DNA of 64,000 bases from Nitrospinaceae bacterium (lineage in GTDB: Bacteria > Nitrospinota > Nitrospinia > Nitrospinales > Nitrospinaceae): contig OZ245011.1 in the NCBI GenBank assembly GCA_965223665.1, positions 2,656,001 through 2,720,000 on the forward strand. The letters run 5' to 3'. Below, piece by piece: positions 17,968 to 40,883 of this stretch. A program made the position numbers and the translations under genes. Each line of letters opens with the position of its first letter. Position 1 is the stretch's first letter. Under the pieces are notes generated by a model. That model did not search any database, was not told the DNA's origin, and worked only from the letters and a program-made list of their open reading frames with translations.

Positions 17968-18076
17968 TACTTCCCGCTTCTTTTTCGGATTAAAACGTAA
18001 ATTCCTTCTTCTTTAAAATGATATTTGATACCTTAGAGTTGATAACAGGCTTCCATTCGCTTAAAAATTTTTTCTT

Positions 18077-18881: not shown

Positions 18882-18980
18882 TTGGCGGGGATACAACCAA
18901 ATAAATCTTGTAAATCCAATTTTATAAATACCTTAACTAAATTCAACTTTTTCATCTTGCCCCCCAAATTGCCCCTAATT
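18882..18980. mobile_element. Candidate distal end (attR-like) of the ssrA element
   Basis: TTGGCGGGGA (shares GGCGGGG with tmRNA 3' end) and GCCCCCCAAATTGCCCCTAATT, which matches inverted arm-like sites at 40360-40414. Confidence 0.6.
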
Positions 18981-19065
18981 TTTATATTGCCATTTCCTAC
19001 AAACCCAACCAATAGTTTAAATTCCAAAACAAAACTCTAGCCTATTAATTTAAATTTTGTTCATC

Positions 19066-19665
19066 TCAATATTTCAAACCCAGTTTCTGACTGATTCCTC
19101 TTAAAGAAATATCTATGTAGGCATCATGCTTACAGACTAATTTTTCAAAAGTTTTCCAATGCATTCCCTTAGGTTTCCAGCCGTTTCCATTTAGAAAACC
19201 CGGCTCCCATCCCAGTTTCTCCCTTATTTTATTCAGCTTTCTAGCGGCGCGGTCATAACTGACTTCCTGCTGGCTGGCATAGGCAAGCTCATAACAATGT
19301 CTACAAGCAAAAACGGTTTCTCCATAAAGGATAGCCACACGGCGTTCACACCCTACAGCAGGACAAAGAAACCAGGGTCGTTTTCCCCCAAAGTGACAAG
19401 AAGTCCAATCTAAATAAACAGAATACTTTTTATGCTGCCATTTGTCTTCATCCCATCTTTTATGATTGTAAGTCAGAATAATTCGGCCCGGTTCTACCCG
19501 AACTTGTATCGTTGCCACCGTTTCACCATTGCGTGACCAGTTCCAGGAAAAAGACTGATGCCCGGTCAACAACCCTCGGCGTTTCCAATCCCGGATATCA
19601 ATTTCCCTGTAATCATCGGTCGTATCCTTTTTATCCCATCTTTGCCCACTGCCATATCCACCCAT
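19066..19665 (-). CDS. Island hypothetical protein with Cys motifs (putative Zn finger)
   Basis: MGGYGSG, GGKRPWFLCPAVGC..RVAILY...FACRHC..LAYASQ, KPKGMHWKTF. Confidence 0.7.
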   Translation of the reverse strand: MGGYGSGQRWDKKDTTDDYREIDIRDWKRRGLLTGHQSFSWNWSRNGETVATIQVRVEPGRIILTYNHKRWDEDKWQHKKYSVYLDWTSCHFGGKRPWFLCPAVGCERRVAILYGETVFACRHCYELAYASQQEVSYDRAARKLNKIREKLGWEPGFLNGNGWKPKGMHWKTFEKLVCKHDAYIDISLRGISQKLGLKY

Positions 19666-19789
19666 AACTCCTCCTTTTTATCGAAATCATTAAGGAACTT
19701 TACCTTTTGACGTTGACTTTATTGCTTTTCAATGAACTATTCAGGTACTAATGAGACCTCATTTTTAGGTGCTATTTATTTTCGTTTTT

Positions 19790-20296
19790 TTAGTCGTTTT
19801 CCTTACTTTCCGACCCAATATCGCCCCCAAAAAGAACTTTGCACTCTAAAATCGTTCTTAACTCTTCCGGAGCGAGTGTTTTAACATCCAATTCAACAAG
19901 GTCCTTCTCCGTGAACACCGGCAAACTTTGATCGGGCACACATCGGGCAACAGATTTATCCTTCGCCAAATACAAGGCTTGATTCAAAATGATCGAGTAA
20001 ATTTTGACATACCCCAGCCTTCGATAATCTTCAATGGATTGCCTTAGCTGCAATACCCTTTTGTTTTTTAACACCAAGGCCAGCGCTTCCTCCTCAGCTT
20101 TTTCCCGGGAGAAATTTACTTTTTCAGAAGTCATCAATTGAACATATTCCTCGTAAATTTCTCTATCCACCTCGTTCAACAATGGCCAAGGTAGTTCATC
20201 ACTGTTTGATGAAACGACCAAAGGTTCTCGTTTTATTTCCTCTAAAGGTAAGGACGAGTCCTTCACCTGGCTGGCTAAATTCAAATATTTGCCCAT
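19790..20296 (-). CDS. Island hypothetical protein
   Basis: 168-aa ORF with AGGAGA RBS, co-oriented with replication module. Confidence 0.65.
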   Translation of the reverse strand: MGKYLNLASQVKDSSLPLEEIKREPLVVSSNSDELPWPLLNEVDREIYEEYVQLMTSEKVNFSREKAEEEALALVLKNKRVLQLRQSIEDYRRLGYVKIYSIILNQALYLAKDKSVARCVPDQSLPVFTEKDLVELDVKTLAPEELRTILECKVLFGGDIGSESKEND

Positions 20297-20321
20297 GGAA
20301 TTTTTTTCTCCTAACTGGAAT

Positions 20322-20390
20322 GCGAAAAAAGAGAATTAAGCGAAAAAAGTCCTTGAATCAAAGTTAATTCGCATTTTTCGCTTTTTTCGC
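20322..20390. repeat. Converging 9-bp iterons, candidate element origin
   Basis: GCGAAAAAA-type units at 20322, 20331 (degenerate), 20340; inverted units ending 20372, 20381, 20390. Confidence 0.55.
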
Positions 20391-21758
20391 ATCCCCTTTT
20401 TGTAAAAACCACCGTTCTACAGGTCGGCCACCACTACTCTCGACTTTGTAAAACGCAACTCCTTTTTCAAACAAAGCTTCCAGGGCGCGACCGATTTGTT
20501 GCGAATCCTTATGTCTTTTAAACAAAGCACTGATTTGGGTACGCGTCATTCCATTCGGGTAGATGTCCAAGGCCCTTTTTATTTCATCGGCAACCGGGTC
20601 ACCGAGCGATTTCCCAAACACAAACCCCGCGGAAGCCTCGCAATATTCCCAAATCGCTAAAGCGGCGAGCAAATGCTCTTCTTTTATTTTTGAGGAACAA
20701 TCCAACAGAGCATAGATCATTGCCAATCGCATCACCTGGGCTTCCGCTCTTGCAATGGCCGCACCCAAAAGACCCGGTTTTCCTTCACTCAGTTCAGGAT
20801 AAACTTGTGCCCAGGTCCTGCGTGCGAAATCATCTCGCTTGAGTTCCCCCATCACTCGTGCTTCGTTCAAAGTCTCTCTTAGTCTAGTGATCAAAGGATT
20901 TAAATCGACTTCGTGCAACCGTCCCCCTTCAGGTAGAACTTTGGATCGCTTGACACACACCAATAAAAACCGATTCACGAATCCGTTACAAAGCTCTGTA
21001 GCTGTTATCTGACGAAACAATTCATCCTTGGTGATATGCCCCACAACGGAAATATGAGGTTCGCTGGCTCGAGCCTGACTGTTTTTGGTCAAGGTCCGCA
21101 AATCACGTCCATCCCATGCGTTTCTTACAATAGGGGATAACGTATTACCCTCACGATTCAAAACTTTCAAAGGCGAGGCAAACTCTGATTCCAGTATCAA
21201 AGCCCGTTTGTCTTCAATACCCGGGTCAATTATTTCATCTTCATAACCAACGATTCTCTTTTTTTCTCGAATCGCCACTTTCTTCTTAATTTCATCACGA
21301 ATCAACCAGATCAATCCTTCTCCACTGGAGAGACCGGAATGAATGCATTGCTTGGACCAAGGGTCATCGACCACAGAAAACAAACTCTCAATTTGTCCCC
21401 AACTGGTACCTTTGCGTCCTTTTGCCGAGGCTCCCACCATAACAGTGAACAGGTTTGGATAATGCTTGTCGGCTTCCGCTTTAAAATAAGCTCCACGACC
21501 GACACAATTTCCAAACGCAGTCAGCAGTTGAAGCAACAAGGAAGCGGGGTCAGCTTCCGTATGCGGCTCCAGGGTTTTAACAATATCTCCGGCCAATCCG
21601 TAATAAGCCATGTCCTCGAGAGGAGACGGCCAATCAATCCTCAAACCGTTTTCACTCTGACCTCCCGATTCAGGAGTAAAGGATTGGGCAGAGTTTTGAA
21701 AAGGGTTATCAGGTGAAATGGTGTCTGAAACTGCTGGGCCAATATTATTTTCAGCCAT
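20364..21758 (-). CDS. DUF3987/YfjI-like replication protein (helicase-like)
   Basis: TEADPA, PNLFTVMVGASAKGRKGTS, GLSSGEGL, ESEF, RNAWDG, NGFVNRFL; start MAENN after GGAGG. Confidence 0.75.
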   Translation of the reverse strand: MAENNIGPAVSDTISPDNPFQNSAQSFTPESGGQSENGLRIDWPSPLEDMAYYGLAGDIVKTLEPHTEADPASLLLQLLTAFGNCVGRGAYFKAEADKHYPNLFTVMVGASAKGRKGTSWGQIESLFSVVDDPWSKQCIHSGLSSGEGLIWLIRDEIKKKVAIREKKRIVGYEDEIIDPGIEDKRALILESEFASPLKVLNREGNTLSPIVRNAWDGRDLRTLTKNSQARASEPHISVVGHITKDELFRQITATELCNGFVNRFLLVCVKRSKVLPEGGRLHEVDLNPLITRLRETLNEARVMGELKRDDFARRTWAQVYPELSEGKPGLLGAAIARAEAQVMRLAMIYALLDCSSKIKEEHLLAALAIWEYCEASAGFVFGKSLGDPVADEIKRALDIYPNGMTRTQISALFKRHKDSQQIGRALEALFEKGVAFYKVESSGGRPVERWFLQKGDAKKAKNAN

Positions 21759-22773
21759 AAACCACCTCCGTTTGACGAAGAACATCTAACCAATCCACCG
21801 AGTTTTTATCATTAGGAATATCCATAGGAGGCACACAGATTTTGATACGCGTTTTCTCCTCTTCCCAAAGCCGGTTTCCAAGGATTTGTGCTGCCCGCTC
21901 CCCTCTTCCATTCCTGTCTTTATCGCAGGCGATCCAGATTTCGTTTGCGTTAGAAGGAACAACCACTTTTTCAAGACCGGTTGCAGTCAGACAAGCCCAG
22001 ACTGGGAAATCGGACAACTCATGAATGGCGATTGCCGTTTCAACTCCCTCGGTTAGGACCAAAGGATGGTCTGCGCGCACCTCATAAAGTTTGACAGCCC
22101 CTCCGTTGATCGACTGAGCGCATCGATATGTTTTCTTGGGACTCTCAACAGGCGCTTTGCCCAAACCATCCGGGTCCAACCAAATGCGATGAATGCCAAC
22201 CAGCTCATCCTTAAAAGTGATCGGTGCCACAATAGCGGGATAAGCTCGCATAAACTTTTTTCCTGAAAAATAGGAAAGGCTGGAACAAAAACGTAAACAG
22301 TTCGGAACCACACCACTCAATCCGCGATATTCTAAATATTCAGATATGCGGCCCGGATCAGAGGAGGTTTGTTTAAGAATGGTTTTTACTTTTTCACTTC
22401 TCTTTTTAATTTCGTAACCTTTATTGAATGAAATTCTGGTCAACGGTTTGGAATGACAGGAAGGAGAGCCATCCTGATCCAATCCAAGATAACGGGCAAC
22501 TGCCTCCAACGTTTCAACAAAGTTCCAACCCTTCACCCACATCAACAAGCTGATTCCGTCATGGAAGGGTCCGTTTAGGTTGCAAACCCCTCCACCCTTC
22601 TCATTGGCATCAGGAAACAATCGAAACCCGTCTTTCTCGCCATGACATAAACAGCGAACATGTCGCCCTGGCTTTTGACAAGCATCATCCAATTCAGGTG
22701 CCAACGCGCAAAATATGCTCAGCCAGTTTCCCGAAGCGCACTCTTTCAGGTCATCAATATTGATTTTATTCAT
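21751..22773 (-). CDS. Primase with P4-alpha-type Zn-binding and Toprim domains
   Basis: RHVRCLCHGEKDGFR, YLEYRGL, GIHRIWL, LTEGVETA, IACDKD..GRG. Confidence 0.82.
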   Translation of the reverse strand: MNKINIDDLKECASGNWLSIFCALAPELDDACQKPGRHVRCLCHGEKDGFRLFPDANEKGGGVCNLNGPFHDGISLLMWVKGWNFVETLEAVARYLGLDQDGSPSCHSKPLTRISFNKGYEIKKRSEKVKTILKQTSSDPGRISEYLEYRGLSGVVPNCLRFCSSLSYFSGKKFMRAYPAIVAPITFKDELVGIHRIWLDPDGLGKAPVESPKKTYRCAQSINGGAVKLYEVRADHPLVLTEGVETAIAIHELSDFPVWACLTATGLEKVVVPSNANEIWIACDKDRNGRGERAAQILGNRLWEEEKTRIKICVPPMDIPNDKNSVDWLDVLRQTEVVYG

Positions 22774-22888
22774 TTTTATTCTCCTTCCGCTTGGATACCC
22801 AAAGAGCAAACCAAATGGGCAGCCATCCCCAAACCGCTAAAGTCCGGATGATTTCTTTCAACCATTGAAATAGTTTTGAGCAGTTCAT
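22766..22888 (-). CDS. 40-aa Trp-rich small protein between alpA and primase
   Basis: MNCSKLFQWLKEIIRTLAVWGWLPIWFALWVSKRKENKNE*; ATGA overlap with alpA stop, GGAGG RBS, overlaps primase start. Confidence 0.65.
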   Translation of the reverse strand: MNCSKLFQWLKEIIRTLAVWGWLPIWFALWVSKRKENKNE

Positions 22889-23103
22889 CTGTTCTGCCCT
22901 CCATCCTCATTCAGTTCCTTACGGCTCGCTTCAATTTTTTTGGCTATCCATTCATCAATTTCTGATTCGATCCATCCAACCGCACGATCTCCAAGAGATA
23001 CAGGAGGCGGAAAAAATCCTTGAGACACTTTTTGATAAATTGAGCTACGGGAAAGTCCTGTGCGGTGTTTGACTTTTGGAAGTCTTAAAATTCGATTTTG
23101 CAT
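22885..23103 (-). CDS. alpA: AlpA family regulator/excisionase
   Basis: RILRLPKVKHRTGLSRSSIY....G.FPPPVSLGDRAVGWIESEIDEWI. Confidence 0.93.
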   Translation of the reverse strand: MQNRILRLPKVKHRTGLSRSSIYQKVSQGFFPPPVSLGDRAVGWIESEIDEWIAKKIEASRKELNEDGGQNR

Positions 23104-23340: not shown

Positions 23341-24120
23341 TTATTTTTTCATGTTTTTTCGAATGGTTTCCGAGCTATAGCCTTGTCCGATAGGCATCCT
23401 GGAAATCTGAATAGCGCACCAATTATCCGATTGCCCTGGATTCTTTCTCTTGATTTTTCGATATTCAGTTCCCCAACCGGAATGTCTTGTCTTTGTATCC
23501 TGTTTCCGAGCTTCACGTTTAATGACTGATGGTTGATACTGATTGGAAGGGGGTGAATAATCTACAAACTTTAAAATTTTCTTAAGATTGACTTGAATTA
23601 AGTTTTTTTTAACAGTAAATAATTCAATCAATGGACTAGAAGCGTTAGACGCTTTCAAAGAAACCGGAGCTTGACAATCCAATTGGAGAAGACCAGACTT
23701 TGTCTTTCCTTGGTAGTTTCCTAAATGAATCGTTCCGGATTTTTTATCTTTTTTGGGTTTCCCTTTGATTCCCAGTGAACGGTTAACCCATCGCGCCACT
23801 TGATCTTGGGTGAGTTTCCATTGTTGCAGCATCTCCTGAGGAATAGGGATGCGTCCCATATCATCCCGGTAATCACAGGCCACATAAATTCGTGTAGGTT
23901 GACCATTTTTTGTTTGAGCATGCACTGGCATGAAACAGTTTTCTTCACATCCTGGGCAAACTACTGACTTAGCAAATAATGCTGGTTTAATCCATCCCTC
24001 ATTCTGAAACAGTTCAATGGCACCCTCTGGCCACCGTTGGACCTGGTCCCAGGAAATTGTTTTGTCTCCACTCTGTTCTAATCTTAAAATCAAATCTTCC
24101 AAAACATCTTCAAGAGTCAT
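23341..24120 (-). CDS. Island hypothetical protein (CPGCEENC motif, C-terminal HTH-like)
   Basis: 259-aa ORF with ATGA overlap to upstream gene. Confidence 0.7.
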   Translation of the reverse strand: MTLEDVLEDLILRLEQSGDKTISWDQVQRWPEGAIELFQNEGWIKPALFAKSVVCPGCEENCFMPVHAQTKNGQPTRIYVACDYRDDMGRIPIPQEMLQQWKLTQDQVARWVNRSLGIKGKPKKDKKSGTIHLGNYQGKTKSGLLQLDCQAPVSLKASNASSPLIELFTVKKNLIQVNLKKILKFVDYSPPSNQYQPSVIKREARKQDTKTRHSGWGTEYRKIKRKNPGQSDNWCAIQISRMPIGQGYSSETIRKNMKK

Positions 24121-25307
24121 GCAGCATTCTCATCATTTTGTTCTTCTTTTTTTATGGGTTCAATTCCAGAGTCGATCAACATTTTTCGTATAATCAAATC
24201 CCGACCATCATGACGTAAGGCACACCAATTGGGATAACTGATCTTGAACCTTCGAGTATGACTTCTTGTTTCGGGGTTATGGACAAAATTAACTTTGATC
24301 TCTGCTTGAGACACATGAAAAGGAGGCAAATGGAGTTGGTCTATTAAATCAAAAATCGCATTTCTGTCATAGCTTGGATCAGCTTCCACAGTGACTCGCT
24401 TTTTATTTCCAGTTTTCAGACTCAATCGAAGCTGAGTGATCATCACTTCATCAATTCCGGAATCTATAGAATATTTAAAAGAAAAGTTCCTGTCCACTAA
24501 GTCGTCCAAATCATAAACAAGTTGATTCGCACCAAATTCATCGAGTTCATCCATTCCCAAAATAGATTTGGCAAATATCTGTTGTAATACGGGAACCGAC
24601 TTGGTGTTTCTGGGAGCATAAATATCTAAAGAACCTTCCACCTGTGTATAGACGAAAATGATTTCAAAGGCAGGATGACGTGCTTGAGGGGATAATGAAT
24701 TACGCACCCACTCAATACTGGACTGCGCAAAATCTTCCGGGTAGGCAAAAAAATATTCCTTTTCATGCCGACGAAAAACATCCACCATACAGTTGCGACC
24801 TCTTCCCTCTTTTTTATAAAAATGATCACTAATGGCCTGCGATAATTTTTCAATGTCCCCTTCTTCCACCTTTGGTGGCAGGTCCGGTAAATCATTTCGC
24901 TTCTTCCATTTCGAAACCGAAATACTATCCGAATGTAAAAATCCCCTACCCCCGGACCAATATCGGGGATGCTCCAGATAGGTCCACATCACTTTTCCAT
25001 GGAACCCCTCAATTTTTGCTATTTCTTTCAAAAACTCGGAATCTTGGTGAAAGTCAGCTTCATCCGATAGCGCGGTCACTCCCCCTTGACAGGCCATGGT
25101 ATCAATATCCTGAAACTCCGCTTCCATTTTCGTCTGTTTCTCCGGAGGCAAGGCAATAAAGGCCTCAAAGATTGGGTCTATCGTAGTTTCGTTCAACTCT
25201 TCAAAGTCGATGTCTTCCAAAACATTTTGCTTAACTTGAAAATATTGAGCGAGGAAACGATTGGGAACTTGCCGAAAAAACTGTTTATGTGAATATTGAC
25301 GAGCCAT
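24117..25307 (-). CDS. Island hypothetical protein
   Basis: ~396 aa from MARQYSHKQFFRQVPN; divergent from cas3. Confidence 0.7.
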   Translation of the reverse strand: MARQYSHKQFFRQVPNRFLAQYFQVKQNVLEDIDFEELNETTIDPIFEAFIALPPEKQTKMEAEFQDIDTMACQGGVTALSDEADFHQDSEFLKEIAKIEGFHGKVMWTYLEHPRYWSGGRGFLHSDSISVSKWKKRNDLPDLPPKVEEGDIEKLSQAISDHFYKKEGRGRNCMVDVFRRHEKEYFFAYPEDFAQSSIEWVRNSLSPQARHPAFEIIFVYTQVEGSLDIYAPRNTKSVPVLQQIFAKSILGMDELDEFGANQLVYDLDDLVDRNFSFKYSIDSGIDEVMITQLRLSLKTGNKKRVTVEADPSYDRNAIFDLIDQLHLPPFHVSQAEIKVNFVHNPETRSHTRRFKISYPNWCALRHDGRDLIIRKMLIDSGIEPIKKEEQNDENAA

Positions 25308-25446
25308 TTGTGCATTCCTTATGAGGAATTTTTCATGTAGTATACCCTTATCCATTAGAATTTCGCAAAAAACTAAAAAAGTTCCATTTACTTTTTTGGA
25401 AATCTCTTCACAAATTAATTTTCATATTTAATGTAGGTGAAAAATT

Positions 25447-27681
25447 ATGGAGAAATTTTTGAGTGAAAACCTGAAGAAGAACACAATTCTTGCCCACGTC
25501 TTAAAAGACTCTTCAGAAAAATGGATTGAACATGATTTACTAGAGCATTTAGTTTGTGTTGGAAAACTTGCCAAAAAATTTGCCGATAAATTTAATAATG
25601 GCGATTGGGCTTATTTAGCTGGACTTTGGCATGATTTAGGCAAATACAATCCCAAATTTCAAAGTTATATCAAAATCAAAAGCGGATACGATCCAGATGC
25701 ACATCTTGAAACTAATCCTGGCAAAGTCAACCATTCGAGTGCGGGTGCCTTGCACGCGATAGAAAAATTTGGGAAAAAAGGGAGAATTCTTGCCTACCTC
25801 ATTGCTGGGCACCATGCCGGGTTAGCTGATTGGTATTCAAAAAATCAAGGAATTGGATCGCTATCAAGTCGGTTGAATGAAAAGAAACATTTAATAGAAA
25901 CTCTTTCAGTCACTCCCCCTTCAAAAATCTTAAATCAGGAATTTCCCACCTCTAAACCTAATACATCATCCAGACATATCCATTTGTGGATTCGTCTGCT
26001 GTTCTCATGTTTAGTAGATGCCGATTTTTTGGACACCGAGCAGTTTATGGATTTGGAAAAATCAAAACTTCGCTCCAATTTCCCCCATCTTTCCCTGCTA
26101 TTAAATCAATTCAACCAATATATGCAAAAAACCTTTTCTAAGGCATTATCCAGCCCTGTCAATAAAATACGATCAAACATTCTTAAACAATGCAAAGAAA
26201 AAGCATTAAATCCTTCGGGAATTTATTCTCTTAACGTTCCTACGGGTGGAGGAAAAACTTTATCTAGCCTAGCCTTTGCATTAGAGCATGCCATTCATTT
26301 AAAAAAAGATCGAGTTATTTATGTAATTCCTTATACAAGCATTCTGGAACAAACTGCAGATATATTTCGTAACATTTTTTCTGAAGGTGTAGTTGAACAC
26401 CATAGCAATCTCGATTCAGAAAAAGAATCTCCCAAAAGTCGATTAGCCTGTGAAAATTGGGATGCTTCTATCATCGTAACCACTAATGTACAATTTTTTG
26501 AATCTTTATTTGCAACTCGAACCAGTCGCTGCCGCAAACTCCATAACATTATTAACAGTGTTGTCGTTCTGGATGAAGCTCAATTGTTTCCCACGGAATT
26601 TTTAGACCCCATCCTTTCAGTTATTAGTGAACTTTTCAATAATTACAAAGTTAGTTTCCTCATTTCTACAGCCACACAGCCCGTTTTTAAGGAACAAATA
26701 ACTTTCGATTATCATTTTAAGGGTTTACCACGGATAGAGGAAATCATTGAAGATCCAATCAAACTCCATGAATCTCTTAAGCGGGTACAAGTAAACCATT
26801 TTAATAATTTACAAGCACTGCAGAATTGGGAAGTCCTTGCCAAACCATTGAAACAACATGAAAAAGTTTTATGTATTGTCAATACCCGGCGAGACTGTCG
26901 TACTCTTTTTCGTTTAATGCCAGAGGGAACCTATCATCTTTCCGCTCTCATGTGCGGGGAACATCGCTCAAAAATAATTTCTGAAATAAAAGAAAAACTC
27001 ACCCAAAATTATCCCATCCGAGTTATCAGCACACAACTCGTGGAAGCGGGTGTGGATTTTGATTTTCCCGTGGTTTATAGAGCGCTGGCAGGCTTAGACT
27101 CCATAGCCCAGGCCGCCGGTCGTTGCAACCGGGAAGGGTTATTACCGTATGGAACGCTTATGGTTTTTGTTCCCCCAGGAAATAAACCCCCGACCTTTTT
27201 GAAAAAGCAAGTTTCCACTGCTTTACAAATCATTAACTCCAATACCGGCGAACTTTTATCTCCCCAAAACTACGCACAATACTTCGAGCACATTTATTGG
27301 AAAGCACCTAATTTGGATGCAAAAGGGATTTTGCAAGAATTAAAACCCGGTCAAGACGGAGAAGTTCAATTTCGAACCGCCGCACAAAAATTCAAACTCA
27401 TCGAAGACGATTTTCAAAAGCCCATTATTGTTATCTATCGCAATGAGGATTTAATAAATCAATTACGAGAAAAAGGACCAGAACGAAAACTTTTGCGTTC
27501 ATTACAGCGTTACGTAGTTAACATTCAAAAAATTGCCCACGACCTTTTATTAAACAAAGGAGATATTGAAGAACTGCATCCAGGAATTTTTGTCCAAATC
27601 AATCCTGGTTCTTATGACCAACAATTTGGTTTTGTTGGAGACATACCCGAGGCTCATGATCCAAATGATTATATGTTTTGA
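25447..27681 (+). CDS. cas3: CRISPR-associated helicase/HD nuclease Cas3
   Basis: HDLGK, GHHAGL, LVDADFLDT, VPTGGGKT, DEAQ, STQLVEAGVD, QAAGRCNREG. Confidence 0.97.
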   Translation: MEKFLSENLKKNTILAHVLKDSSEKWIEHDLLEHLVCVGKLAKKFADKFNNGDWAYLAGLWHDLGKYNPKFQSYIKIKSGYDPDAHLETNPGKVNHSSAGALHAIEKFGKKGRILAYLIAGHHAGLADWYSKNQGIGSLSSRLNEKKHLIETLSVTPPSKILNQEFPTSKPNTSSRHIHLWIRLLFSCLVDADFLDTEQFMDLEKSKLRSNFPHLSLLLNQFNQYMQKTFSKALSSPVNKIRSNILKQCKEKALNPSGIYSLNVPTGGGKTLSSLAFALEHAIHLKKDRVIYVIPYTSILEQTADIFRNIFSEGVVEHHSNLDSEKESPKSRLACENWDASIIVTTNVQFFESLFATRTSRCRKLHNIINSVVVLDEAQLFPTEFLDPILSVISELFNNYKVSFLISTATQPVFKEQITFDYHFKGLPRIEEIIEDPIKLHESLKRVQVNHFNNLQALQNWEVLAKPLKQHEKVLCIVNTRRDCRTLFRLMPEGTYHLSALMCGEHRSKIISEIKEKLTQNYPIRVISTQLVEAGVDFDFPVVYRALAGLDSIAQAAGRCNREGLLPYGTLMVFVPPGNKPPTFLKKQVSTALQIINSNTGELLSPQNYAQYFEHIYWKAPNLDAKGILQELKPGQDGEVQFRTAAQKFKLIEDDFQKPIIVIYRNEDLINQLREKGPERKLLRSLQRYVVNIQKIAHDLLLNKGDIEELHPGIFVQINPGSYDQQFGFVGDIPEAHDPNDYMF

Positions 27682-27721
27682 TGAGCCTTAACATAGAAAT
27701 CATTCTCAATAAGGAGGGACA

Positions 27722-28378
27722 ATGAGTACTTTTTGTCTTAAAGTGTGGGGCGATTACGCGTGCTTCACCCGCCCTGAAATGAAAGTAGAGCGAGTCTCTT
27801 ATGATGTAATGACACCCTCGGCAGCAAGAGGAATACTGGAAGCCATACTTTGGAAACCGGCCATTCACTGGGTGGTCACCCGAATTGATGTCCTCAAGCC
27901 CATCCAGTGGTTTTCCATCAGGCGAAATGAGGTGGCTTCTGTCATCAGCAAAAGAAACGTTTCACAGGCAATGAAATCCGGCAAAAAAGATTTAGCGATT
28001 TATGTAGATGAAGATCGCCAACAAAGGGCCAGCACACTTCTGCGTGATGTTGCCTATTTGATTCACGCTCGATTTGACCTGATAAACCCAGGCCCAGAAG
28101 ATACGGAAGGAAAATTCTTGGGCATGTTTGAGCGCCGCGCATCCAAAGGGCAAAGTTTTCACCGGCCCTACCTGGGAACTCGTGAATTTGCCGCCCAGTT
28201 TGAATTGATTCCCAAAGACAACCCCTTGCCAAAACCCATCGACAAAACGGAAGAACTGGGTTGGGTGCTTTACGATTTGGATTATGAAGATCATTACCGG
28301 CCTCGATTCTTTAAAGCCCGGTTGGAACAGGGAAGAATGACAATCCCTGCCTGGAACAGTGAGGAGGTGCGCGGATGA
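27722..28378 (+). CDS. cas5c: Type I-C Cas5c (Cas5d)
   Basis: VWGDYACFTRPEMKVERVSYDVMTPSAARGILEAILWKP, PYLGTREF. Confidence 0.97.
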   Translation: MSTFCLKVWGDYACFTRPEMKVERVSYDVMTPSAARGILEAILWKPAIHWVVTRIDVLKPIQWFSIRRNEVASVISKRNVSQAMKSGKKDLAIYVDEDRQQRASTLLRDVAYLIHARFDLINPGPEDTEGKFLGMFERRASKGQSFHRPYLGTREFAAQFELIPKDNPLPKPIDKTEELGWVLYDLDYEDHYRPRFFKARLEQGRMTIPAWNSEEVRG

Positions 28379-30122
28379 TTTTACAAGCTTTGAACGAATA
28401 CTATGAAAGAAAATCAAAGCTGCAAGATTCCGGCTTGCCTCCTCTCGGTTTCGAATGGAAAGAACTTCCCTTTCTTATCGTAATTGGTGAAAAGGGACAA
28501 TTTATAGATATTGAAGACACTCGAGAAAAAGAAGAAAAGAAAAACAAGACTAAATCTTTTTTAGTACCACAGAGTGTTAAAAAATCAGTCAATATAGCAG
28601 CAAATTATTTTTGGGGAGCGATTGGTTACGCTTTGGGCAAAGACAATAAAAGCAAACCAAAGCGTTTGCTTGAGATGCACCAAGCTTTTTTGGATCTCAT
28701 ACAGTCCAGTTTTCCAAATCCTCAGGAAGAGAAAGGAGTGAATGCGCTTTGGTTATTTCTGAATTCATCCAATAAAACAGAAACCTTTAAACATCCCTTA
28801 TGGAAGGAAATGCTTGAGATCAGCCCCTTCATTTCTTTTCGCCTCCAATCAGAGAATTTGTTGATTTGCCAGAGAGAAAAAGTTCGCGAAGCTTGGCAGA
28901 ATAAGAACCAAGCAGAACTTGCAAAAAAACAACTTTGTCTCGTAACAGGAAATTACGGTGAAATCGAACGCATTCATCCCTCCATAAAAGGTGTAAGAGG
29001 CGCCCAGTCTTCAGGCGCAGACATTGTTTCTTATAACAAACCTGCCTTTACTTCATTTAACAAAGAGCAAGGAGACAATGCCCCTATTAGCCAATTAGCT
29101 GCTTTTTGCTACACCACTTCTTTGAATTATCTTTTAAGAAAAAATTCTCCACAAAAATTGCCAAATTGGAGATGCGACTACTGTTTTTTTGGGCGGATAA
29201 AGAACATCGAACAGAAACTCTATTAAGTGAATTGTTTGAGGAGTCACCTGATGATCCCGACCGAAATGCTCGAGCAGTCGAAAGTCTTTATAGTTCTCCA
29301 CATACTGGTGCACTACCCCTTGAAGAAGATAATACCAAATTTTATGTTCTCGGTTTATCGCCCAATGCCGCACGTCTCTCAGTTCGTTTCTGGCACGTCA
29401 CCACTGTTGCTGACTTGGCCAAAAACATCAAACAACATTTCGAGGATATTTCCATTATTCACTCTCCACAGGAAAAAAAAGTTCTTTCTTTATTCCGGCT
29501 TTTAGTGAATACGGCCGCATTAGGTAAATCCGAAAACATCATTCCCAACCTTTCAGGTGAAACCATGCGCAGTATATTGCAAGGTACCCCTTACCCAAGA
29601 ACTCTACTGCAACAGGGTATTAATAAGATGTCGTGCCGAGCAATCTTCCAGCGAGAAAAATGTAAATTATCCTCGAGCGGCTTTAATCAAGGGCTGCTTA
29701 AACCGAATCATTAGAAATTTTTCAACCGCAAGAAAAGGAGATCACCGTGTCATTGGATACCAGCAATCACAACACAGGTTATTTGTTGGGCCGCTTATTC
29801 GCTGCTCTGGAAAAAATCCAGGAAGAAACCCATCCTGGAATCAACGCCACCATTCGAGATCGATACTATGGTGCAGCCTCTGTAAGACCAAGTATGGTTT
29901 TTTCTTCTCTCTTAAAACTTAAAAATCATCATGTCTCCAAATTGGAACACCAAGGACGTAAAGTGTTTTTTGAAAAGCTTTGTGGGGAAATTATTGATGG
30001 AATTAAAAATAATTTTCCATCCGTTCTCAATTTTGGAAGATCAAGGCCGTTTTGCCATTGGCTATTACCACCAACGTCAAGAATTTTTCAAAAAACACGA
30101 AACAGAAGAAAAAGGAGAATAA
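28375..30122 (+). pseudogene. cas8c: Type I-C Cas8c (Csd1), split by five apparent +1 frameshifts
   Basis: [55 protein letters not shown] lie in successive frames; possibly assembly error. Confidence 0.9.
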
Positions 30123-30124
30123 TT

Positions 30125-30986
30125 ATGAGCATCGAAAATCGATATGACTTTGTTTTGTTATTTGATATCAAAGATGGCAACCCCAATGGCGACCCTGATG
30201 CTGGAAATCTGCCGCGCCTGGACCCGGAAACAGGCCACGGCCTTGTGACTGATGTCTGCCTCAAAAGGAAAGTGAGAAACTATGTCCAAATGCTTAAAGA
30301 ACAGCAAACTGGTTTTAATATATTTATAAAAGAAAAAGCTGTTTTGAACCAATTAATTGATAGTGCTCACGAACAACCAGAAGTTAAGATAAAAGAAAAA
30401 GGAGATAAAACCGAGGCGGCTCGTAAGTATATGTGTGAACAATTCTATGACGTTCGGACTTTTGGAGCCGTAATGTCCACCGAAAAAATGCTGGTCAAGT
30501 TCGCGGGCCGATCCAGCTTTGCTTCGGCAGAAGTTTAAACCCAATTTTTCCCTATGGAACACTCCATCACCCGCATGGCAGTAGCGACTGAAAAAGAAGC
30601 AGAAAAGCAACAGGGTGATAACCGCACCATGGGAAGAAAGAATACTATCCCTTATGGACCTGTATCGAACCCATGGGTTCGTATCCGTTCCATTTGCCAC
30701 CCAAACCGGCTTTTCCGAAGATGATCTTTCCTTATTTTTTGAAGCTTTAAAAAACATGTTTGATCATGATCGGTCTGCTTCCAGAGGAGAAATGGCAAGC
30801 CGACGACTTATCATATTCAAACATAACGACAAATATGGCAATGCACACGCTCATGAATTGTTTGACCGGGTTCAGGTTGAGCTAAAAGATAAATCCAAAC
30901 CTCCACGCAATTTTGATGATTATGAAGTAACACTCGATGAATCCAATCTTAATGGAGTTTCGATTGATAAAGAAAGAAGCTTTTAA
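30125..30986 (+). pseudogene. cas7c: Type I-C Cas7 (Csd2), three apparent indels
   Basis: [67 protein letters not shown] across frames. Confidence 0.9.
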
Positions 30987-31709
30987 TGGAAAATTCCTCA
31001 ACATCTTTATTTTCCGAAGAAGAGTTACTGCCCATTTCGGCGTTGCAGCATTTGGTGTTTTGCGAGCGCCAGTGGGCGCTCATCCACTTGGAACAGTATT
31101 GGCAGGAGAATCCATTAACTCTGGAAGGCCAGTTCCTGCATCAAAAAACCGATGAAAACCAAACTGAAGTCAAAGGTCCCCTGCGCATTGCGCGGGGGCT
31201 GCGGCTTCGTTCTCTGAAGCTCGGGTTGATTGGCCGTGCCGATGTCGTCGAATTTCATCGCGTTCCATCAGTCGAATAAAAAATTAATGTCCTCAGCCAG
31301 CCTTTCCCTCAAAGGAGCCGCCGGTCTCTGGCAGCCTGTTCCTGTAGAATACAAACGCGGTCGCCCCAAGTTTTTAAATTGCGACAAAGTCCAACTCTGT
31401 GCTCAGGGAATGTGTTTGGAAGAAATGCTGCACGTTTCTATCCCGAAAGGATTTATTTATTACGGTAAAACCCGTAAACGGCTAGAAGTTCCGTTCGACT
31501 CCTCGTTAAGGGAAGAAACCGGAACACTTGCAAAACGCTTGCACGAATACACGCAAAAACAATTCATGCCCAAAGCTCAATATGAAAAAAAATGTGAGAG
31601 TTGCTCCTTACTTGACCACTGCATGCCCAAACAATTAGATCATAAAGGAGAATCCCAAAAATATCTGCAACGGCAAATTCATTCCCTTCAGGAAGACTCA
31701 GGAGAATAA
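30986..31709 (+). pseudogene. cas4: Cas4, one apparent +1 frameshift near 31265
   Basis: ISALQHLVFCERQWALIH, GRADVVEF / PVEYKRG, VQLCAQ, CESCSLLDHC. Confidence 0.9.
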
Positions 31710-31713
31710 CTCA

Positions 31714-32739
31714 ATGAAAAAATTATTGAACACACTTTATATAACGCAGTCGGAAACCTATCTTTCTAAAGAAGGCACAACAATACGAATTGAAAAAAAC
31801 GCCGATCCTCCATTAAAAATTCCCATCCACAATCTGCAAAGCATCATCTGCTTTGGGTCCGCAACGCTTTCGTCTCCATTGCTGGCTTTATGCAGCGAAC
31901 ACAACGTCAGCGTCGCTTTTTACACCGAATGGGGAAAGTTTCAAGCTAGAGTTCATGGTCCCGTTTCCGGGAATGTTTTGTTGCGCCGCGAGCAATACCG
32001 AAGGGCCGATCAAGAATTGTTTTCAACTACCATGGCTCAATCTTTGCTCATCGCAAAAATTGGAAACTCCCGTGTCGTGCTCATGCGCGCCGCACGTGAG
32101 GGAAAAGTTTCGCCCACACCTTTAAAAGAAGCTGCCAACAAATTAGCGGCATTAATTAAAGACATTCCAAACCAAAAAACATTGTCCTCGCTACGTGGCA
32201 GAGAAGGCGAAGCTGCAAAAATATACTTTAATGTATTCGACTCCTTGATCACCAAAAATAAAAATACTTTCTTTTTTAAAGAAAGAAACCGACGTCCTCC
32301 GTTGGACAATGTAAACTCCCTTCTCTCATTTTTATATACCCTGCTAGCGCATGATGTCACCTCTGCATTGGAGGGAGTGGGACTCGACCCTGCAGTAGGG
32401 TTTTTACATCGAGATCGGCCCGGACGCCCTAGCTTGGCCCTGGACCTGATGGAGGAGTTCCGACCTTACTTAGCGGATCGATTGGCTTTGGCACTGATCA
32501 ATCTCCAACAAGTACAACCCAAAGGATTTCGAAAAACCGAGACCGGAGCCATTCTAATGGACGATGAAACCCGAAAGACCGTTTTAGTGGCTTATCAAAA
32601 ACGAAAGCAAGAAGAAATTAAGCATCCCTTTCTAGGCGAAAAAGTAGCAGTGGGTTTGTTACCACACATTCAGGCTCAGTTATTAGCCAGACATTTACGC
32701 GGCGACTTGGATGTGTATCCGCCGTTTTTTTGGAAATGA
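31714..32739 (+). CDS. cas1: Type I-C Cas1
   Basis: MKKLLNTLYIT, GNVLLRREQYR, LRGREGEAAKIYF, RNRRPPLDNVNSLLSFLY, LALDLMEEFR. Confidence 0.98.
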   Translation: MKKLLNTLYITQSETYLSKEGTTIRIEKNADPPLKIPIHNLQSIICFGSATLSSPLLALCSEHNVSVAFYTEWGKFQARVHGPVSGNVLLRREQYRRADQELFSTTMAQSLLIAKIGNSRVVLMRAAREGKVSPTPLKEAANKLAALIKDIPNQKTLSSLRGREGEAAKIYFNVFDSLITKNKNTFFFKERNRRPPLDNVNSLLSFLYTLLAHDVTSALEGVGLDPAVGFLHRDRPGRPSLALDLMEEFRPYLADRLALALINLQQVQPKGFRKTETGAILMDDETRKTVLVAYQKRKQEEIKHPFLGEKVAVGLLPHIQAQLLARHLRGDLDVYPPFFWK

Positions 32740-32773
32740 TTATGAAAACTGTGCCCAAAAAGGAAACTGCCCA

Positions 32774-33064
32774 ATGATGGTTCTAGTCACTTACGATGTC
32801 AATACTGAAACAACAGCAGGAAGAAAACGGTTGCGCCGCGTTGCCAAAACCTGTGAAAACTATGGCCAACGAGTCCAACACTCCGTTTTCGAATGCCTGG
32901 TCGACCCCACACAATGGACACAACTCAGCCATACATTAGTGAATGAAATAGACAAGAAAAAGGACAGCTTACGCTTTTACTATTTAGGAAAAAACTGGGA
33001 ACGCCGTGTAGAGCATATCGGAGCAAAACCAACTTATAACCCGGAGGGACCCTTAATAATATAA
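32774..33064 (+). CDS. cas2: Cas2
   Basis: MMVLVTYDV, RLRRVAKTCENYGQRVQHSVFEC, DSLRFYYLG. Confidence 0.97.
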   Translation: MMVLVTYDVNTETTAGRKRLRRVAKTCENYGQRVQHSVFECLVDPTQWTQLSHTLVNEIDKKKDSLRFYYLGKNWERRVEHIGAKPTYNPEGPLII

Positions 33065-33245
33065 TCGAGCGCGAACCCCTAATGAGGGTCAAAAGCCTAC
33101 TAGGTTCGCGGATAATTAAACTCTTTGAAAAAAAAGGTGAAAATATCGATAATTTTTAAACAATAGAAATAATTGAAAGGTGAAAACGAAGTTAGCGAAA
33201 AAGGAGGATAAAGCCGAAAATAATCAAAAGCTTAGGTATTATACT
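33065..33245 (+). promoter_or_regulatory. CRISPR leader
   Basis: AT-rich, between cas2 and first repeat; inverted motif CGCGAACC (33070) / GGTTCGCG (33103) as seen in I-C leaders. Confidence 0.8.
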
Positions 33246-38416
<5,171 letters not shown>

Positions 38417-38683: not shown

Positions 38684-39892
38684 TTATGTTTGTTTCGATA
38701 GATAATTAAATTCAAGGTCAACTTTAATTTTATCTAAATAATCCGCCCAGTCTTGCATCATCTTTTTACGTTCGGGGAGGTGGGCGGTGCGGTTATAGGC
38801 GCGTCCGTTGGGATCGCGTACGGCGTGGGCGAGTTGGTGCTCGATAAAATCGGGACGAACGCCTAACACCTCGTCTAGTATGGTTCGGGCCATTGCCCGA
38901 AATCCGTGACCACTCATTTCTTCTTTTCCAATTCCCATCCTTCGCATCGCCGCTAAAATCGCATTATCGCTCATCGGTCTGTCTTTACTCCGCGTACCTG
39001 GAAAAACAAAACGACCATTTCCCGTAAGAGGTTTTAATTCTCTCAAAATTTCCAAAGCTTGTCTGGATAATGGAACAATATGTTGTGATCTAGTTTTGGT
39101 CACCATGAAACGCCACTCTGCTTTTTCTAAATCTATGTCTGCCCATTCTGCTTTGCGAAGTTCCCCTGGTCTCACGAACACCAACGGAGCAAGCCGCAAT
39201 GCACAACGGACAATGAGAGAACCTTCATAACCATCCATCACTCGCAAAAGTTTTGCCACTTCTCCGGGTTCAGTCACCGCGGGAAAATGACCTCCTTTCA
39301 CAGGAGTCAATGCTCCACGAAGATCACGAGTGGGATCACTTTCCGCCCGTCCTGTAGCCACAGCATAACGAAAGACTTGACCGCAATTTCCTAATGCACG
39401 GTGCGCGGTTTCTATGGCTCCGCGTTTTTCGATACGTTGAATGACAGTGAGAATTTCCGGGGGTTTTAGTTTTCCAATTGAAGTTTCCCCAATCCAGGGA
39501 AAGATATCTTTTTCAAAACGACGGATAATTCGACTGCCGTGGTCCGGTGCCCAGTTACTGGAATATTTAGAAAACCATTCCCTCGCCACCACTTCAAAAC
39601 TGTTTTTTCCATCAGCCCCGGAGGCCTTTTGGGCTTTCCGGTACTCGCTAGGATCAATGCCATTGGCGACTAGCTTCCGGGCCTCATCCCGTCGCTCCCG
39701 CGCATCCTTTAAACTCACATCAGGAAACACCCCAAGAGATAACTGCTTTTCCTTACCATTGAATCTGTATTTCAATCTCCACCACTTCCCCCCTGAAGGA
39801 GAAATAAAAAGCAACAATCCCCGCTCATCATAGAGTTTATATGATTTTTTTCCAGGCATGGCTTTTCGAACAGCAATATTCGTCAGAGGCAT
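38684..39892 (-). CDS. P4-like tyrosine integrase with N-terminal Arm DNA-binding domain
   Basis: DERGLLL...GGKWWRLKYRFNGKEKQLSLGVFPDVSL; catalytic R (VRPGELR), HGFR, QLAH, AYNR. Confidence 0.95.
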   Translation of the reverse strand: MPLTNIAVRKAMPGKKSYKLYDERGLLLFISPSGGKWWRLKYRFNGKEKQLSLGVFPDVSLKDARERRDEARKLVANGIDPSEYRKAQKASGADGKNSFEVVAREWFSKYSSNWAPDHGSRIIRRFEKDIFPWIGETSIGKLKPPEILTVIQRIEKRGAIETAHRALGNCGQVFRYAVATGRAESDPTRDLRGALTPVKGGHFPAVTEPGEVAKLLRVMDGYEGSLIVRCALRLAPLVFVRPGELRKAEWADIDLEKAEWRFMVTKTRSQHIVPLSRQALEILRELKPLTGNGRFVFPGTRSKDRPMSDNAILAAMRRMGIGKEEMSGHGFRAMARTILDEVLGVRPDFIEHQLAHAVRDPNGRAYNRTAHLPERKKMMQDWADYLDKIKVDLEFNYLSKQT

Positions 39893-40359
39893 GAAGTCTC
39901 CTTGGAGTTAACCGCTTTTGTGGCATCCAAAAAAGTACGAAGCTCTAAAGTTTCTGCAGGAGTTAAAATCACACAGCGTTTACCCATTCGAAAGGAAAGC
40001 GCCCCGTCGTTATCGATAGCAAATCGAGTTTCTGCCATTTGCCTATCTTCTTCAGCACGTCTGGCCTCACGTTCCATTTTCACATGTTCACTAGGATTAA
40101 TCCCTTCCTTCAAAAGAGTTAGAAAAAAATCTCTTTTTTCCCTAGCTTCATCAAGTGATACCTCAGGGTAGATACCAAGCGAAAGCAATTTTTCCTTATT
40201 TCCATACCGATACCTGAACCGCCACAATTTCCTTCCCACAGGAGGAATCATTAGATAAAGGCCCCCTGAATCAAAAATTTTGTACGGTCTATTTGTCCGA
40301 TGACCCTTGGAATTAATTCCCGGTAGGGAAGCTTCAATGATTTCAGTGGTTAATGACAT
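39883..40359 (-). CDS. Stand-alone Arm DNA-binding domain (DUF4102-like) protein
   Basis: DSGGLYLMIPPVGRKLWRFRYRYGNKEKLLSLGIYPEVSLDEAR; no catalytic domain; overlaps integrase start. Confidence 0.8.
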   Translation of the reverse strand: MSLTTEIIEASLPGINSKGHRTNRPYKIFDSGGLYLMIPPVGRKLWRFRYRYGNKEKLLSLGIYPEVSLDEAREKRDFFLTLLKEGINPSEHVKMEREARRAEEDRQMAETRFAIDNDGALSFRMGKRCVILTPAETLELRTFLDATKAVNSKETSCL

Positions 40360-40414
40360 AATTGGGGCAACTCCATTTCCCAGCTTGGGGGAACCCTGAT
40401 AGTTCCCCCCAAAA
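40360..40414. promoter_or_regulatory. Integrase arm-type sites (attL side)
   Basis: AATTGGGGCAAC, TTGGGGGAAC, GTTCCCCCCAAAA; reverse complement matches TTGCCCCTAA at 8031 and 18969. Confidence 0.55.
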
Positions 40415-40467
40415 TTACTAGGATTTCATGAAACAATATTATCTCTTATCAGACTCAAATGCAATAA

Positions 40468-40493
40468 AAAACCCCTATTTTACTAGGGGTTTT
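40468..40493 (-). terminator. Terminator downstream of tmRNA
   Basis: AAAACCCCTA-TTTTAC-TAGGGGTTTT hairpin. Confidence 0.75.
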
Positions 40494-40524
40494 GGACTTC
40501 TTTGGATTTTATTGGATTAAATTT

Positions 40525-40883
40525 TGGTGGAGGCGGGGGGAATTGAACCCCCGTCCGAAAGTCTTCCACGAAAAGTCTCTACATGCTTATCCTGCGATTT
40601 GAATCTCGTCCAAGCTAACTCCCACAGGCAGGATTCCACTTGAACCAGTCTCTAAAAATTCGCTCTAAACTCCCGAGACAAAAAGCCAAGAACTAGTCCG
40701 CAAAAATGACGTCCCTCTCGGCCCCGCGAACAAAAACCGAGTGGACGGTAGCGGGTTTATTAAGCCGCTACTGCTACTTCATAATCGTTGGCGATTATGT
40801 AATATGCCGTTTTTTAACGGGCCAACGGCGTCCCGTGCATGCAACCTTTGCTTCTTTACTCCCGTCGAACCCAAATCGCCCCC
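40525..40883 (-). ncRNA. ssrA: tmRNA; tag peptide ANDYEVAVAA**
   Basis: 5' GGGGGCGATTTGGGTTCGAC, 3' GGTTCAATTCCCCCCGCCTCCACCA with G:U acceptor stem; tag ORF 40757-40792. Confidence 0.97.

Follow-up and report, generated by a model that had tools for sequence, protein, structure and literature searches.

A stretch of 64,000 nucleotides (nt) from a Nitrospinaceae genome holds a 21.6-kb integrative island that lies beside the 3′ end of ssrA, the gene for transfer-messenger RNA (tmRNA), and carries a type I-C CRISPR-Cas system. This stretch (the window) is G000:C1:2656001–2720000, where G000 is the genome under study (4.35 Mb in six contigs), and the island occupies window positions 18886–40525; positions given below without a contig or locus name are those of the window. 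Using a relative from the same genus (G001) as the main comparison, we found that the ends of the island and its frame of genes are common to both genomes, whereas the slot within the frame and the replication module differ. This comparison gives good support to the conclusion that ssrA hosts an integrative element with CRISPR-Cas as its cargo, as opposed to a chromosomal locus of ancestral origin. We put at roughly 0.75 the probability of the joint reading that the island belongs to a widespread family of islands placed site-specifically on the 3′ side of ssrA, with a conserved frame, that it has long resided at this site and that its cargo was swapped in place. The initial annotation of this DNA had proposed an integrative element at ssrA with CRISPR-Cas as cargo and had recommended a search for homologous backbones around other cargo. 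That search was positive: int, p412-p259-alpA or both accompany other cargo, or none, in the slot of genomes G001, G030, G091 and G092 and of the metagenome contigs L131–L135, which bears out the proposal. The host lineage is mostly uncultured and little studied, and the nearest homologues carry the source names Nitrospinales or Nitrospinota.

One gene frame around different cargo at ssrA

Leftward from ssrA, the island contains a 158-amino-acid (aa) open reading frame (ORF), the integrase gene int, the CRISPR array, cas2-1-4-7-8c-5-3, two genes of unknown function (p412 and p259), alpA, a primase gene, a DUF3987 gene, p168 and p199. Between G000 and G001, DNA identity is 85% in the right flank, 86% in int (92% for the protein), 82% across alpA-p259-p412 (93% for the p412 protein) and 87% in a 90-bp block at the left end (18886–18975). 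In G001 the slot between int and p412 is filled by a candidate defence gene (PDC-S18), a type IIG restriction-modification enzyme of 1355 aa and an ORF of 159 aa. Beyond alpA, G001 has a helix-turn-helix (HTH) protein and a second tyrosine recombinase in place of the primase and DUF3987 protein, and G091 is arranged likewise.

A survey of 120 genomes of the phylum returned p412 in five, four of which (G000, G001, G030 and G091) demonstrably carry it at ssrA. The element of G030 reads ssrA-int, NOV_C and SNF2 genes in the slot, p412-p259-alpA, a fused Toprim-DUF3987 gene and p199. That of G091 reads ssrA-int, 9.7 kb of cargo, p412-p259-alpA, HTH gene and recombinase gene, and the same glycosyltransferase and TPR genes lie on the far side of ssrA. 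The slot of G091 (L127 12932–18265 and L143 274–3663) contains seven DUF4402 genes, a PapD-like chaperone gene and a gene for a 1129-aa POTRA protein; these genes form a cluster for surface fibres and not for defence. In G092 the order is arm-domain ORF-int-p412-p259, and the slot, about 140 bp long, is empty. We also examined 14 metagenome contigs for p412 loci. L132 has the order tmRNA-int-type I restriction-modification-p412-p259-alpA; its tmRNA tag is very different, and its ssrA can be aligned over only 68 nt, with 81% identity. L133 and L135 carry type I restriction-modification together with a DUF4411/M78 pair, and L131 has an SNF2 gene in the slot. The gene p259 adjoins p412 in all five genomes and in 8 of the 14 metagenome loci. 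At L140 (1–1351, continuing to 8042), a Cas3-HD ORF diverges from a p412 fragment (residues 17–200) and is followed directly by Mrp antiporter genes; the locus may be what remains of an element that decayed while its cas genes stayed behind in the chromosome. One conserved frame thus offers a plug-in slot for adaptive immunity, for innate defence in the sister species and other lineages, for pilus genes, or for nothing.

These loci make it highly improbable that we are looking at an ordinary, vertically inherited chromosomal CRISPR-Cas locus that lies between unrelated mobile-element fragments. The GC content of the cas genes (36–46%) is not distinct from that of the genome (38%), as such a locus would have it, but the int...p412-p259-alpA frame encloses other cargo in G001, G030, G091, L132 and L135, and none in G092. 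Moreover, Cas8c (PF09709) was not found in G001. Among 102 genomes of the order it occurs in eight, G000 included, and within the family in one of 20 members besides G000. The pattern that the initial annotation had named as speaking against its proposal, relatives with the cas locus and without the backbone, was not observed in this search of G001 and the other family members. Cas1 proteins of relatives are at most 64% identical to that of G000, and the nearest among 185,579 species genomes, at most 66% identical, come from many phyla. We also inspected ssrA in 19 relatives (L002–L020). Sixteen of these loci have no integrase-like match within the stretch of up to 1.5 kb downstream that was examined, some being cut by contig ends, as expected for an island that is absent from some related genomes. 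The remaining three comprise G001, with its element, and two loci with 43-aa integrase remnants (G004 and G011). In the latter two (L022 and L023, respectively), ssrA is followed by the N-terminal remnant of the integrase, and a copy of 51–77 nt of the ssrA-downstream sequence lies 11.5–14.8 kb off; each is an island of another kind at the same site.

The site and the integrase follow the pattern of islands that enter tRNA or tmRNA genes. ssrA (40525–40883, minus strand) was located with ARAGORN and matches Rfam RF00023 at 202 bits; its 3′ end faces the element, its tag peptide is ANDYEVAVAA, and ssrA of G001 is 98% identical from position 40492 on. The intact 402-aa integrase (38684–39892, minus strand) is of P4 type, with the Pfam domains Arm-DNA-bind_3, Phage_int_M and Phage_integrase, a match to NCBIfam PRK09692 (E = 1e-76) and the motifs RPGELR, HGFRAMAR, HQLAH and AYNR kept. 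A P4-type integrase gene adjoining the tmRNA 3′ end, as expected of an island of this class, recurs in G001, G030, G091 and L132. The initial annotation had the integrase type right but placed int directly after ssrA; the two are separated by 633 nt, in which the 158-aa ORF comes first. It also likened the element to CP4-57 of Escherichia coli, which lies at ssrA with intA, alpA and yfjI.

The 158-aa ORF (39883–40359, minus strand), the stop of which overlaps the start of int by 10 nt, matches Pfam Arm-DNA-bind_3 (E = 9e-22) and phrog_3423 (E = 1e-26), the latter across the 157-position profile. G092 has a counterpart upstream of int that is 159 aa long and 56% identical, with the C-terminal part outside the arm domain conserved too. 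The family match, the counterpart and the shared C-terminal part rule out a stray integrase fragment, and we regard the protein as a candidate cofactor in recombination or a candidate regulator.

On the other side of the slot, alpA (22885–23103, minus strand) encodes an AlpA-family HTH regulator or excisionase (Pfam Phage_AlpA, E = 1e-22; phrog_2790, 'excisionase and transcriptional regulator'). It is followed by a Toprim primase gene (21751–22809, minus strand; Zn ribbon, DUF7146 and Toprim in Pfam; phrog_510, DNA primase, E = 3e-50) and a gene for a DUF3987 helicase-like protein (20364–21785, minus strand; Pfam). A small ORF had been annotated between alpA and the primase gene; those two genes and DUF3987 stand as described, but the 75-nt gap between alpA and the primase gene holds no meaningful ORF. 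The primase and DUF3987 ORFs overlap by 35 nt, and in G030 and L131 they form a single fused protein of 776–801 aa. In two public runs of one sample (X1 and X2), which is probably the source of G000, the region is present as short contigs (Logan contigs), and a 5010-nt X2 contig spans the primase-DUF3987 junction with zero differences. The distal genes p168 (19790–20296) and p199 (19066–19665), both on the minus strand and of unknown function, matched nothing in Pfam, PHROGs, NCBIfam or PADLOC. The G030 element likewise ends with p199 as its distal gene, and a 54% identical relative of p199 lies past the primase in L126. We scanned the nine backbone ORFs against Pfam and NCBIfam, and all of them except the integrase against PHROGs. 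Consistent with the initial annotation, no capsid, terminase, relaxase or type IV secretion system family appeared in these scans.

Two conserved backbone genes of unknown function, p412 (24117–25355, minus strand) and p259 (23341–24120, minus strand), sit between cas3 and alpA. The cas genes and array do lie between int and alpA, as had been stated, but p412 and p259 share that interval. p412 is divergent from cas3 and marks one edge of the cargo slot; its true start is likely M17, which gives 396 aa. It has no Pfam, NCBIfam or PADLOC family but matches phrog_37634, of unknown function (E = 1.5e-25), and every one of its 874 homologues is named 'hypothetical'. Its AlphaFold2 (AF2) model has a predicted local distance difference test score (pLDDT) of 73 and no match at E ≤ 0.001 in PDB or BFVD, and the ESM Atlas returned unnamed look-alike clusters, half of them virus-labelled. 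p259 always follows p412. Its 119 homologues contain an invariant C-x-G-C...C...C motif (C55, G57, C58, C62 and C82); it has no PADLOC family, and its AF2 model (pLDDT 87.6) has no PDB match at E ≤ 0.001. With 874 and 119 homologues, respectively, p412 and p259 are markers for finding such elements.

The ends of the island were placed by comparison. The right end (40360–40524; attL region), a putative att site, contains a terminator-like hairpin of ssrA (about 40467–40495), TTGGAT-type repeats and one GGGGCAA at 40364, and positions 40448–40517 are 73–81% alike beside ssrA in G030, G092 and L132. The left end block (18880–18975), a candidate attR, is 87% identical to L021 7044–7133 of G001, and this comparison backs a left boundary near 18882–18886. 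The block is kept in G000 and G001 while the neighbouring internal genes differ. It opens with GGCGGGGATACAACC (18880–18895), which resembles the ssrA 3′ end, GGCGGGGGGAATTGAACC, and looks like a decayed copy of it. Two GGGGCAA motifs, at 18957 and 18969 of the minus strand, also lie in the block. In both G000 and G001, this pair at the left end is accompanied by one copy just upstream of int. Across the whole window the motif shows no enrichment (11 copies observed, 11.5 expected); its placement at both ends alone is suggestive.

The type I-C CRISPR-Cas cargo

The cargo of G000 is a full type I-C gene set in the order cas3-cas5c-cas8c-cas7-cas4-cas1-cas2 (25447–33064, plus strand), as established by Pfam matches on every ORF. 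Four genes are intact: cas3, with HD and helicase parts (25447–27681; Pfam, and NCBIfam cas3_core and cas3_HD), cas5c (27722–28378; NCBIfam TIGR01876, type I-C Cas5c, E = 4e-56), cas1 (31714–32739; Pfam Cas_Cas1, E = 6e-103) and cas2 (32711–33064; Pfam CRISPR_Cas2, E = 8e-27). No Cas6 family was found among the ORFs scanned. In the assembly, cas8c (Csd1; 28375–30122) is spread over four frames, with Pfam pieces covering model positions 1–252, 262–424, 438–542 and 522–559; cas7 (Csd2; 30128–30986) over three; and cas4 (30986–31709) over two, both of which match Pfam Cas_Cas4. The full gene set and the 77 spacers of the initial annotation are therefore present, with the qualifications that 68 spacers are unique and that about nine assembly frameshifts interrupt the genes.

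The array (33246–38393, plus strand) begins 181 nt past cas2 and contains 78 repeats of 32 nt, GTCGCTCCCCGTGCGGGAGCGTGGATTGAAAC, and 77 spacers of 32–37 nt; the leader presumably occupies 33065–33245. It fits what we take to be the type I-C signature, repeats of about 32 nt ending in ATTGAAAC. Because of two internal block duplications (34713–35012 equals 35307–35606, and 36375–36575 equals 36576–36776) and one recurring spacer, 68 of the 77 spacers are unique; two repeats, at 36105 and 37767, are variant. This is the sole array with GTCGCTCCCCGTGCGGGAGCGTGGATTGAAAC in the genome, and the cas1 and cas3 genes are the sole ones found with the queries used. The proposal to map the spacers to viral sequences led to no credible match: hits in 50,697 phage records were repeat-like or had E ≥ 9e-4 on short stretches, and two of the 68 unique spacers, searched as exact 27–28-nt prefixes, had no match in IMG/VR. 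Nor did the spacers match the loci compared here or, as self-targets, the genome itself, where the best hit was 30 nt with four mismatches. Contigs of X1 and X2 give almost no cover of the array between 33616 and 38263. They also hold other inserts, of 28–29 nt, between the same repeats (at 34548–35703 and 37038–37074), which reflect either population variants of the array or a different organism that has this repeat.

The frame changes in cas8c, cas7 and cas4 are probably consensus errors of the assembly, the type I-C system being intact in the organism. Pfam pieces and tblastn with proteins of relatives place about nine changes within 3.3 kb: at 29161, 29184, 29615, 29718 and 30031 in cas8c; near 30485 (A6), near 30545 (T5) and at 30659 in cas7; and near 31285, at an A6 run, in cas4. 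Indels at A/T homopolymer runs are typical of long-read consensus errors, and seven of the nine shifts lie at A/T runs of three to seven bases, 30659 and 29615 being the exceptions. Of the nine sites, six (29161, 29184, 29615, 29718, 30031 and 30659) are places where an X1 contig lacks exactly one base. At five of these six, no contig of either run backs the assembly version. The exception is 29161, where another X1 contig, with 3.6 of the depth of 9.1, is without the omission and instead differs from the window at 29151 and 29153. Neighbouring contigs at the same depth show zero differences from the window. When the omitted bases are left out, cas8c becomes one ORF of 580 aa, and its relatives measure 569–611 aa. 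Type I-C loci of relatives were too distant to serve as frame references (Cas1 47–64% identical), and loci with up to 66% Cas1 identity were used instead.

The opposite explanation, that the cas genes are a decaying pseudogene cluster in which cas8c, cas7 and cas4 are truly frameshifted and no longer provide functional immunity, seems improbable to us in the face of the omitted bases, the restored length of cas8c, the A/T runs and the error-free neighbouring contigs. It would account for so many changes within 3.3 kb, and a split cas8c also occurs in two relatives (two pieces at G069:C1:2123057–2124708 and at G024:C1:308261–310211). Also in its favour, and against the error explanation, the changes cluster oddly in cas8c-cas4, although cas3, with 33 homopolymer runs of at least five bases and no shift, is richer in such runs. 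A further point against the error explanation is that the contig evidence covers six of the nine sites, leaving 30485, 30545 and 31285 unverified. The apparent decay of these three genes is a caution, as it is probably an assembly artefact.

Mobility and competing explanations

We compared identities across lineages to separate the mobility of the family from that of the G000 copy. The integrase of G000 is 92% identical to that of G001 and 76–79% identical to those of G030, G091 and G092. Relatives in records named Nitrosomonas oligotropha and Gammaproteobacteria are also 76% identical over the full length; SecY identity within the order is 84–85%. Likewise, records with the names Gallionellaceae and Methylococcaceae contain p412 at 63–64% identity, and copies in the other families of the order are at 61–69%. 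With identity to such records matching that within the order, the family clearly spreads horizontally, across phyla. The backbone proteins are more conserved than their DNA between G000 and G001 (93% against 82% for p412, 92% against 86% for int), a pattern indicating that the backbone genes are under purifying selection. For the G000 copy itself, the evidence on mobility is neutral to negative, and the further suggestion of the initial annotation, an excisable, possibly replicating and helper-dependent element, drew no support from the results. Its backbone has diverged from G001 (82–86% DNA identity) as much as the flanking chromosome (85%), and as the two are equal, nothing shows recent movement. 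The copy has probably stayed at this site from the time when G000 and G001 had one ancestor, with its cargo exchanged in place, rather than being a recent arrival together with its spacers.

The family frame consists of an optional arm-domain protein, a P4-type integrase, a variable slot, p412 and p259, alpA and an exchangeable replication or recombination module, and we propose that this frame was already at ssrA in the ancestor of G000 and G001. CRISPR-Cas then probably came in, or other cargo went out, through recombination inside the conserved flanks, int and p412, and replication modules were probably swapped likewise with incoming relatives. The integrase and AlpA, perhaps with the arm-domain protein, would carry out integration and excision at ssrA, and the primase and DUF3987 protein would replicate the excised circle. 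Because no packaging or conjugation genes are recognizable, transfer between cells would need outside help, with phage particles or vesicles as possible carriers, or conjugation in trans or transformation as possible routes.

Excisable islands with CRISPR-Cas are already known from Vibrio, where VPI-1 lies at ssrA. The reports describe GIVchS12/VPI-6 and GI-24, both with circular products detected by nested polymerase chain reaction; GIVchS12 shares its integrase and att sites with VPI-1, with CRISPR-Cas as well as genes of a type VI secretion system instead of those for the toxin-coregulated pilus, and GI-24 carries a type I-E system (PMC5109276, PMC6360697). The likeness lies in a tyrosine-integrase frame with att sites and a location common to islands of quite different cargo. 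The Vibrio islands differ in phylum, in integrase lineage and in type (I-F and I-E there, I-C here), and the available descriptions give them neither a primase/helicase module nor the p412-p259 pair. Excision has been shown for them, whereas the G000 element is known from its sequence. The present element extends CRISPR-Cas-bearing islands to a little-studied, mostly uncultured lineage.

The backbone also resembles phage satellites, in part. PICMIs (phage-inducible chromosomal minimalist islands) lie next to fis (their hallmark), average 6.7 kb, are confined to Vibrionaceae and have a gene overlapping int that is required for excision (PMC10803314). With these the G000 element has in common an int-alpA-primase core, no capsid-remodelling genes, a small int-overlapping gene and defence cargo. 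By analogy, the 158-aa ORF may act in excision. Unlike PICMIs, the element lies at ssrA, measures 21.6 kb and has the p412-p259 pair, and its relatives swap the primase for a second recombinase. SatelliteFinder would score int, AlpA and primase as a 'Type C PICI', that is, as a phage-inducible chromosomal island (PICI). Of the five components in its PICI model, int, alpA and primase are present, and capsid-morphogenesis and small terminase genes were not matched in Pfam or PHROGs. Of the seven in its P4-like model, the integrase, AlpA and the alpha primase/helicase (as two ORFs here) are present, and Psu, Delta, Sid and epsilon/Ash had no Pfam or PHROG match; p412, p259, p199 and p168 are without a named family (PMC10085698). 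The term 'satellite-like' in the initial annotation thus describes a resemblance, at the level of 'Type C PICI', and not membership. The element shares with P4 satellites an integrase of P4 type that has an arm-binding domain, AlpA, a primase and helicase analogous to P4 alpha and a cargo hotspot on the int side. P4-like elements are reported to be without CRISPR-Cas and type I restriction-modification because no more than about 12 kb is packageable (PMC9122126); the p412-p259 family, unlike them, carries both. An int-AlpA-primase core of minimal phage satellites is here combined with a system of a size that P4-like satellites reportedly do not carry. Tycheposons of Prochlorococcus integrate beside tRNA genes and the tmRNA gene with mostly nutrient-acquisition cargo (10.1101/2020.12.28.424599). 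They resemble the G000 element in having a tyrosine recombinase, a primase/helicase replication module, cargo and tmRNA or tRNA sites; unlike it they live in cyanobacteria, and the likeness is conceptual. In the article texts that our literature search covered, we met no int-AlpA-primase element of satellite type that carries a complete CRISPR-Cas system.

Several observations weigh against the reading of an integrative island with these limits. No direct repeat of the 3′ part of ssrA or of the ssrA-downstream region bounds it, the degenerate GGCGGGGATACAACC at the left being the sole trace. The 29-nt ssrA end, searched with up to three mismatches, occurs in the window only as itself, and blastn-short of 40361–40640 against the window gave matches of 13 nt or less. 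No attP or attB junction is visible in X1 or X2, where contigs alone were used and the two ends were viewed separately. A second copy of the end block at 7944–8040 leaves open a larger unit, of 32.6 kb, or two islands in tandem. p412 has no relative in IMG/VR or, by tblastn, in the 50,697 phage records, and the folds of p412 and p259 have no assignable match. The equal divergence of backbone and flank belongs here too. A search for repeats of the ssrA end within G030 was likewise unconvincing. Loose contig ends at 40523–40525 stem from the ssrA genes of many organisms (depth 33 against about 5) and are uninformative on an empty site; contig joints with sides shorter than 30 nt were disregarded.

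Some of these observations would suit a fossil, an island that was once mobile and is now fixed, acting as a hotspot that swaps cargo by homologous recombination while int, alpA and the primase no longer mobilize it. Its candidate attR is degenerate and without a direct repeat, its divergence from G001 is the same as that of the flanks, 43-aa integrase remnants stand at ssrA in G004 and G011, and decayed p412 remnants lie beside chromosomal genes in L140 and L141/L142. Yet int, the arm-domain ORF, alpA, the primase gene and DUF3987 are all full-length, with protein identity above DNA identity; the left block has been kept in G000 and G001 though adjacent internal genes differ; and the family has clearly been transferred between phyla. 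We regard a fossil as somewhat unlikely. A little less probable in our estimate is the contrary case of an active satellite of the P4, PICI or PICMI type, in which a helper phage would trigger AlpA, excision, replication and packaging and so deliver CRISPR-Cas with its spacers. The element does have exactly the three genes shown to be necessary for PICMIs, int, alpA and primase, and its int-overlapping ORF recalls the PICMI gene needed for excision (PMC10803314); defence cargo is typical of satellites (PMC9122126); and p412 matches a PHROG, besides having virus-labelled look-alikes in half of its ESM Atlas clusters. Against an active satellite, the scanned backbone ORFs contain no capsid-remodelling, TerS (small terminase), Psu, Sid or Delta family, no helper is known, no cos or pac site was identified, and IMG/VR has no match for p412. 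The elements also range from about 9 kb (estimated for the empty-slot form) to 21.6 kb, whereas P4-like elements are reported to be without large systems owing to capsid limits (PMC9122126), and in G001 and G091 the place of the primase module is taken by an HTH protein together with another tyrosine recombinase.

The reading that we prefer, an old resident island with exchangeable cargo, can be extended speculatively. The elements might be a new family, extending across phyla, of hitchers at ssrA that replicate themselves and depend on helpers, with p412 and p259 as hijack or induction proteins and the 158-aa protein as excision cofactor; we hold this to be unlikely in its full form. If it were true, a family unbound by a small capsid could shuttle whole CRISPR-Cas systems with their arrays, as well as type I restriction systems, and the decay of copies, as in L140, would provide one way for 'chromosomal' CRISPR-Cas loci to arise.

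A second end block and related sequences in the genome

The paralogous end block at 7944–8040 is 73% like 18882–18978 and 83% like L021 2553–2651 of G001. It encloses the gene for a large repeat protein, to which G000 alone adds a further 5.6 kb of genes; the stretch 13242–18880 is absent from the corresponding place in G001. Together, the block and this stretch suggest an older tandem island, successive integrations of the kind known from other tRNA and tmRNA hotspots, or a composite unit of 32.6 kb. Tycheposon islands are built by successive integrations, and the second block hints that the same process may have acted here. Between the two copies of the block, a 1631-aa ORF (8224–13119, minus strand) contains 6.6 perfectly identical 309-bp tandem repeats (8248–10287). 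Its orthologue in G001 is 1057 aa long, so the number of repeats differs between the species. A 74-codon ORF at 18486–18710 (minus strand), dodecin-like as judged from its sequence, has an in-frame TGA at codon 19 and could be a pseudogene, reflect a sequencing error or contain a recoded codon; a stretch 75% identical to the region of this ORF is found elsewhere in G001.

Three more integrase-alpA pairs were observed in G000, at C1:549362–551837, at C1:3026290–3035962 and on C3, a small, separate contig of 7.7 kb without terminal overlap. The other small contigs (C2, C4, C5 and C6) are 75–92% identical to parts of the main contig and look like variants from strains or sister species that were binned into G000; C5 holds paralogues of window positions 13913–16289.

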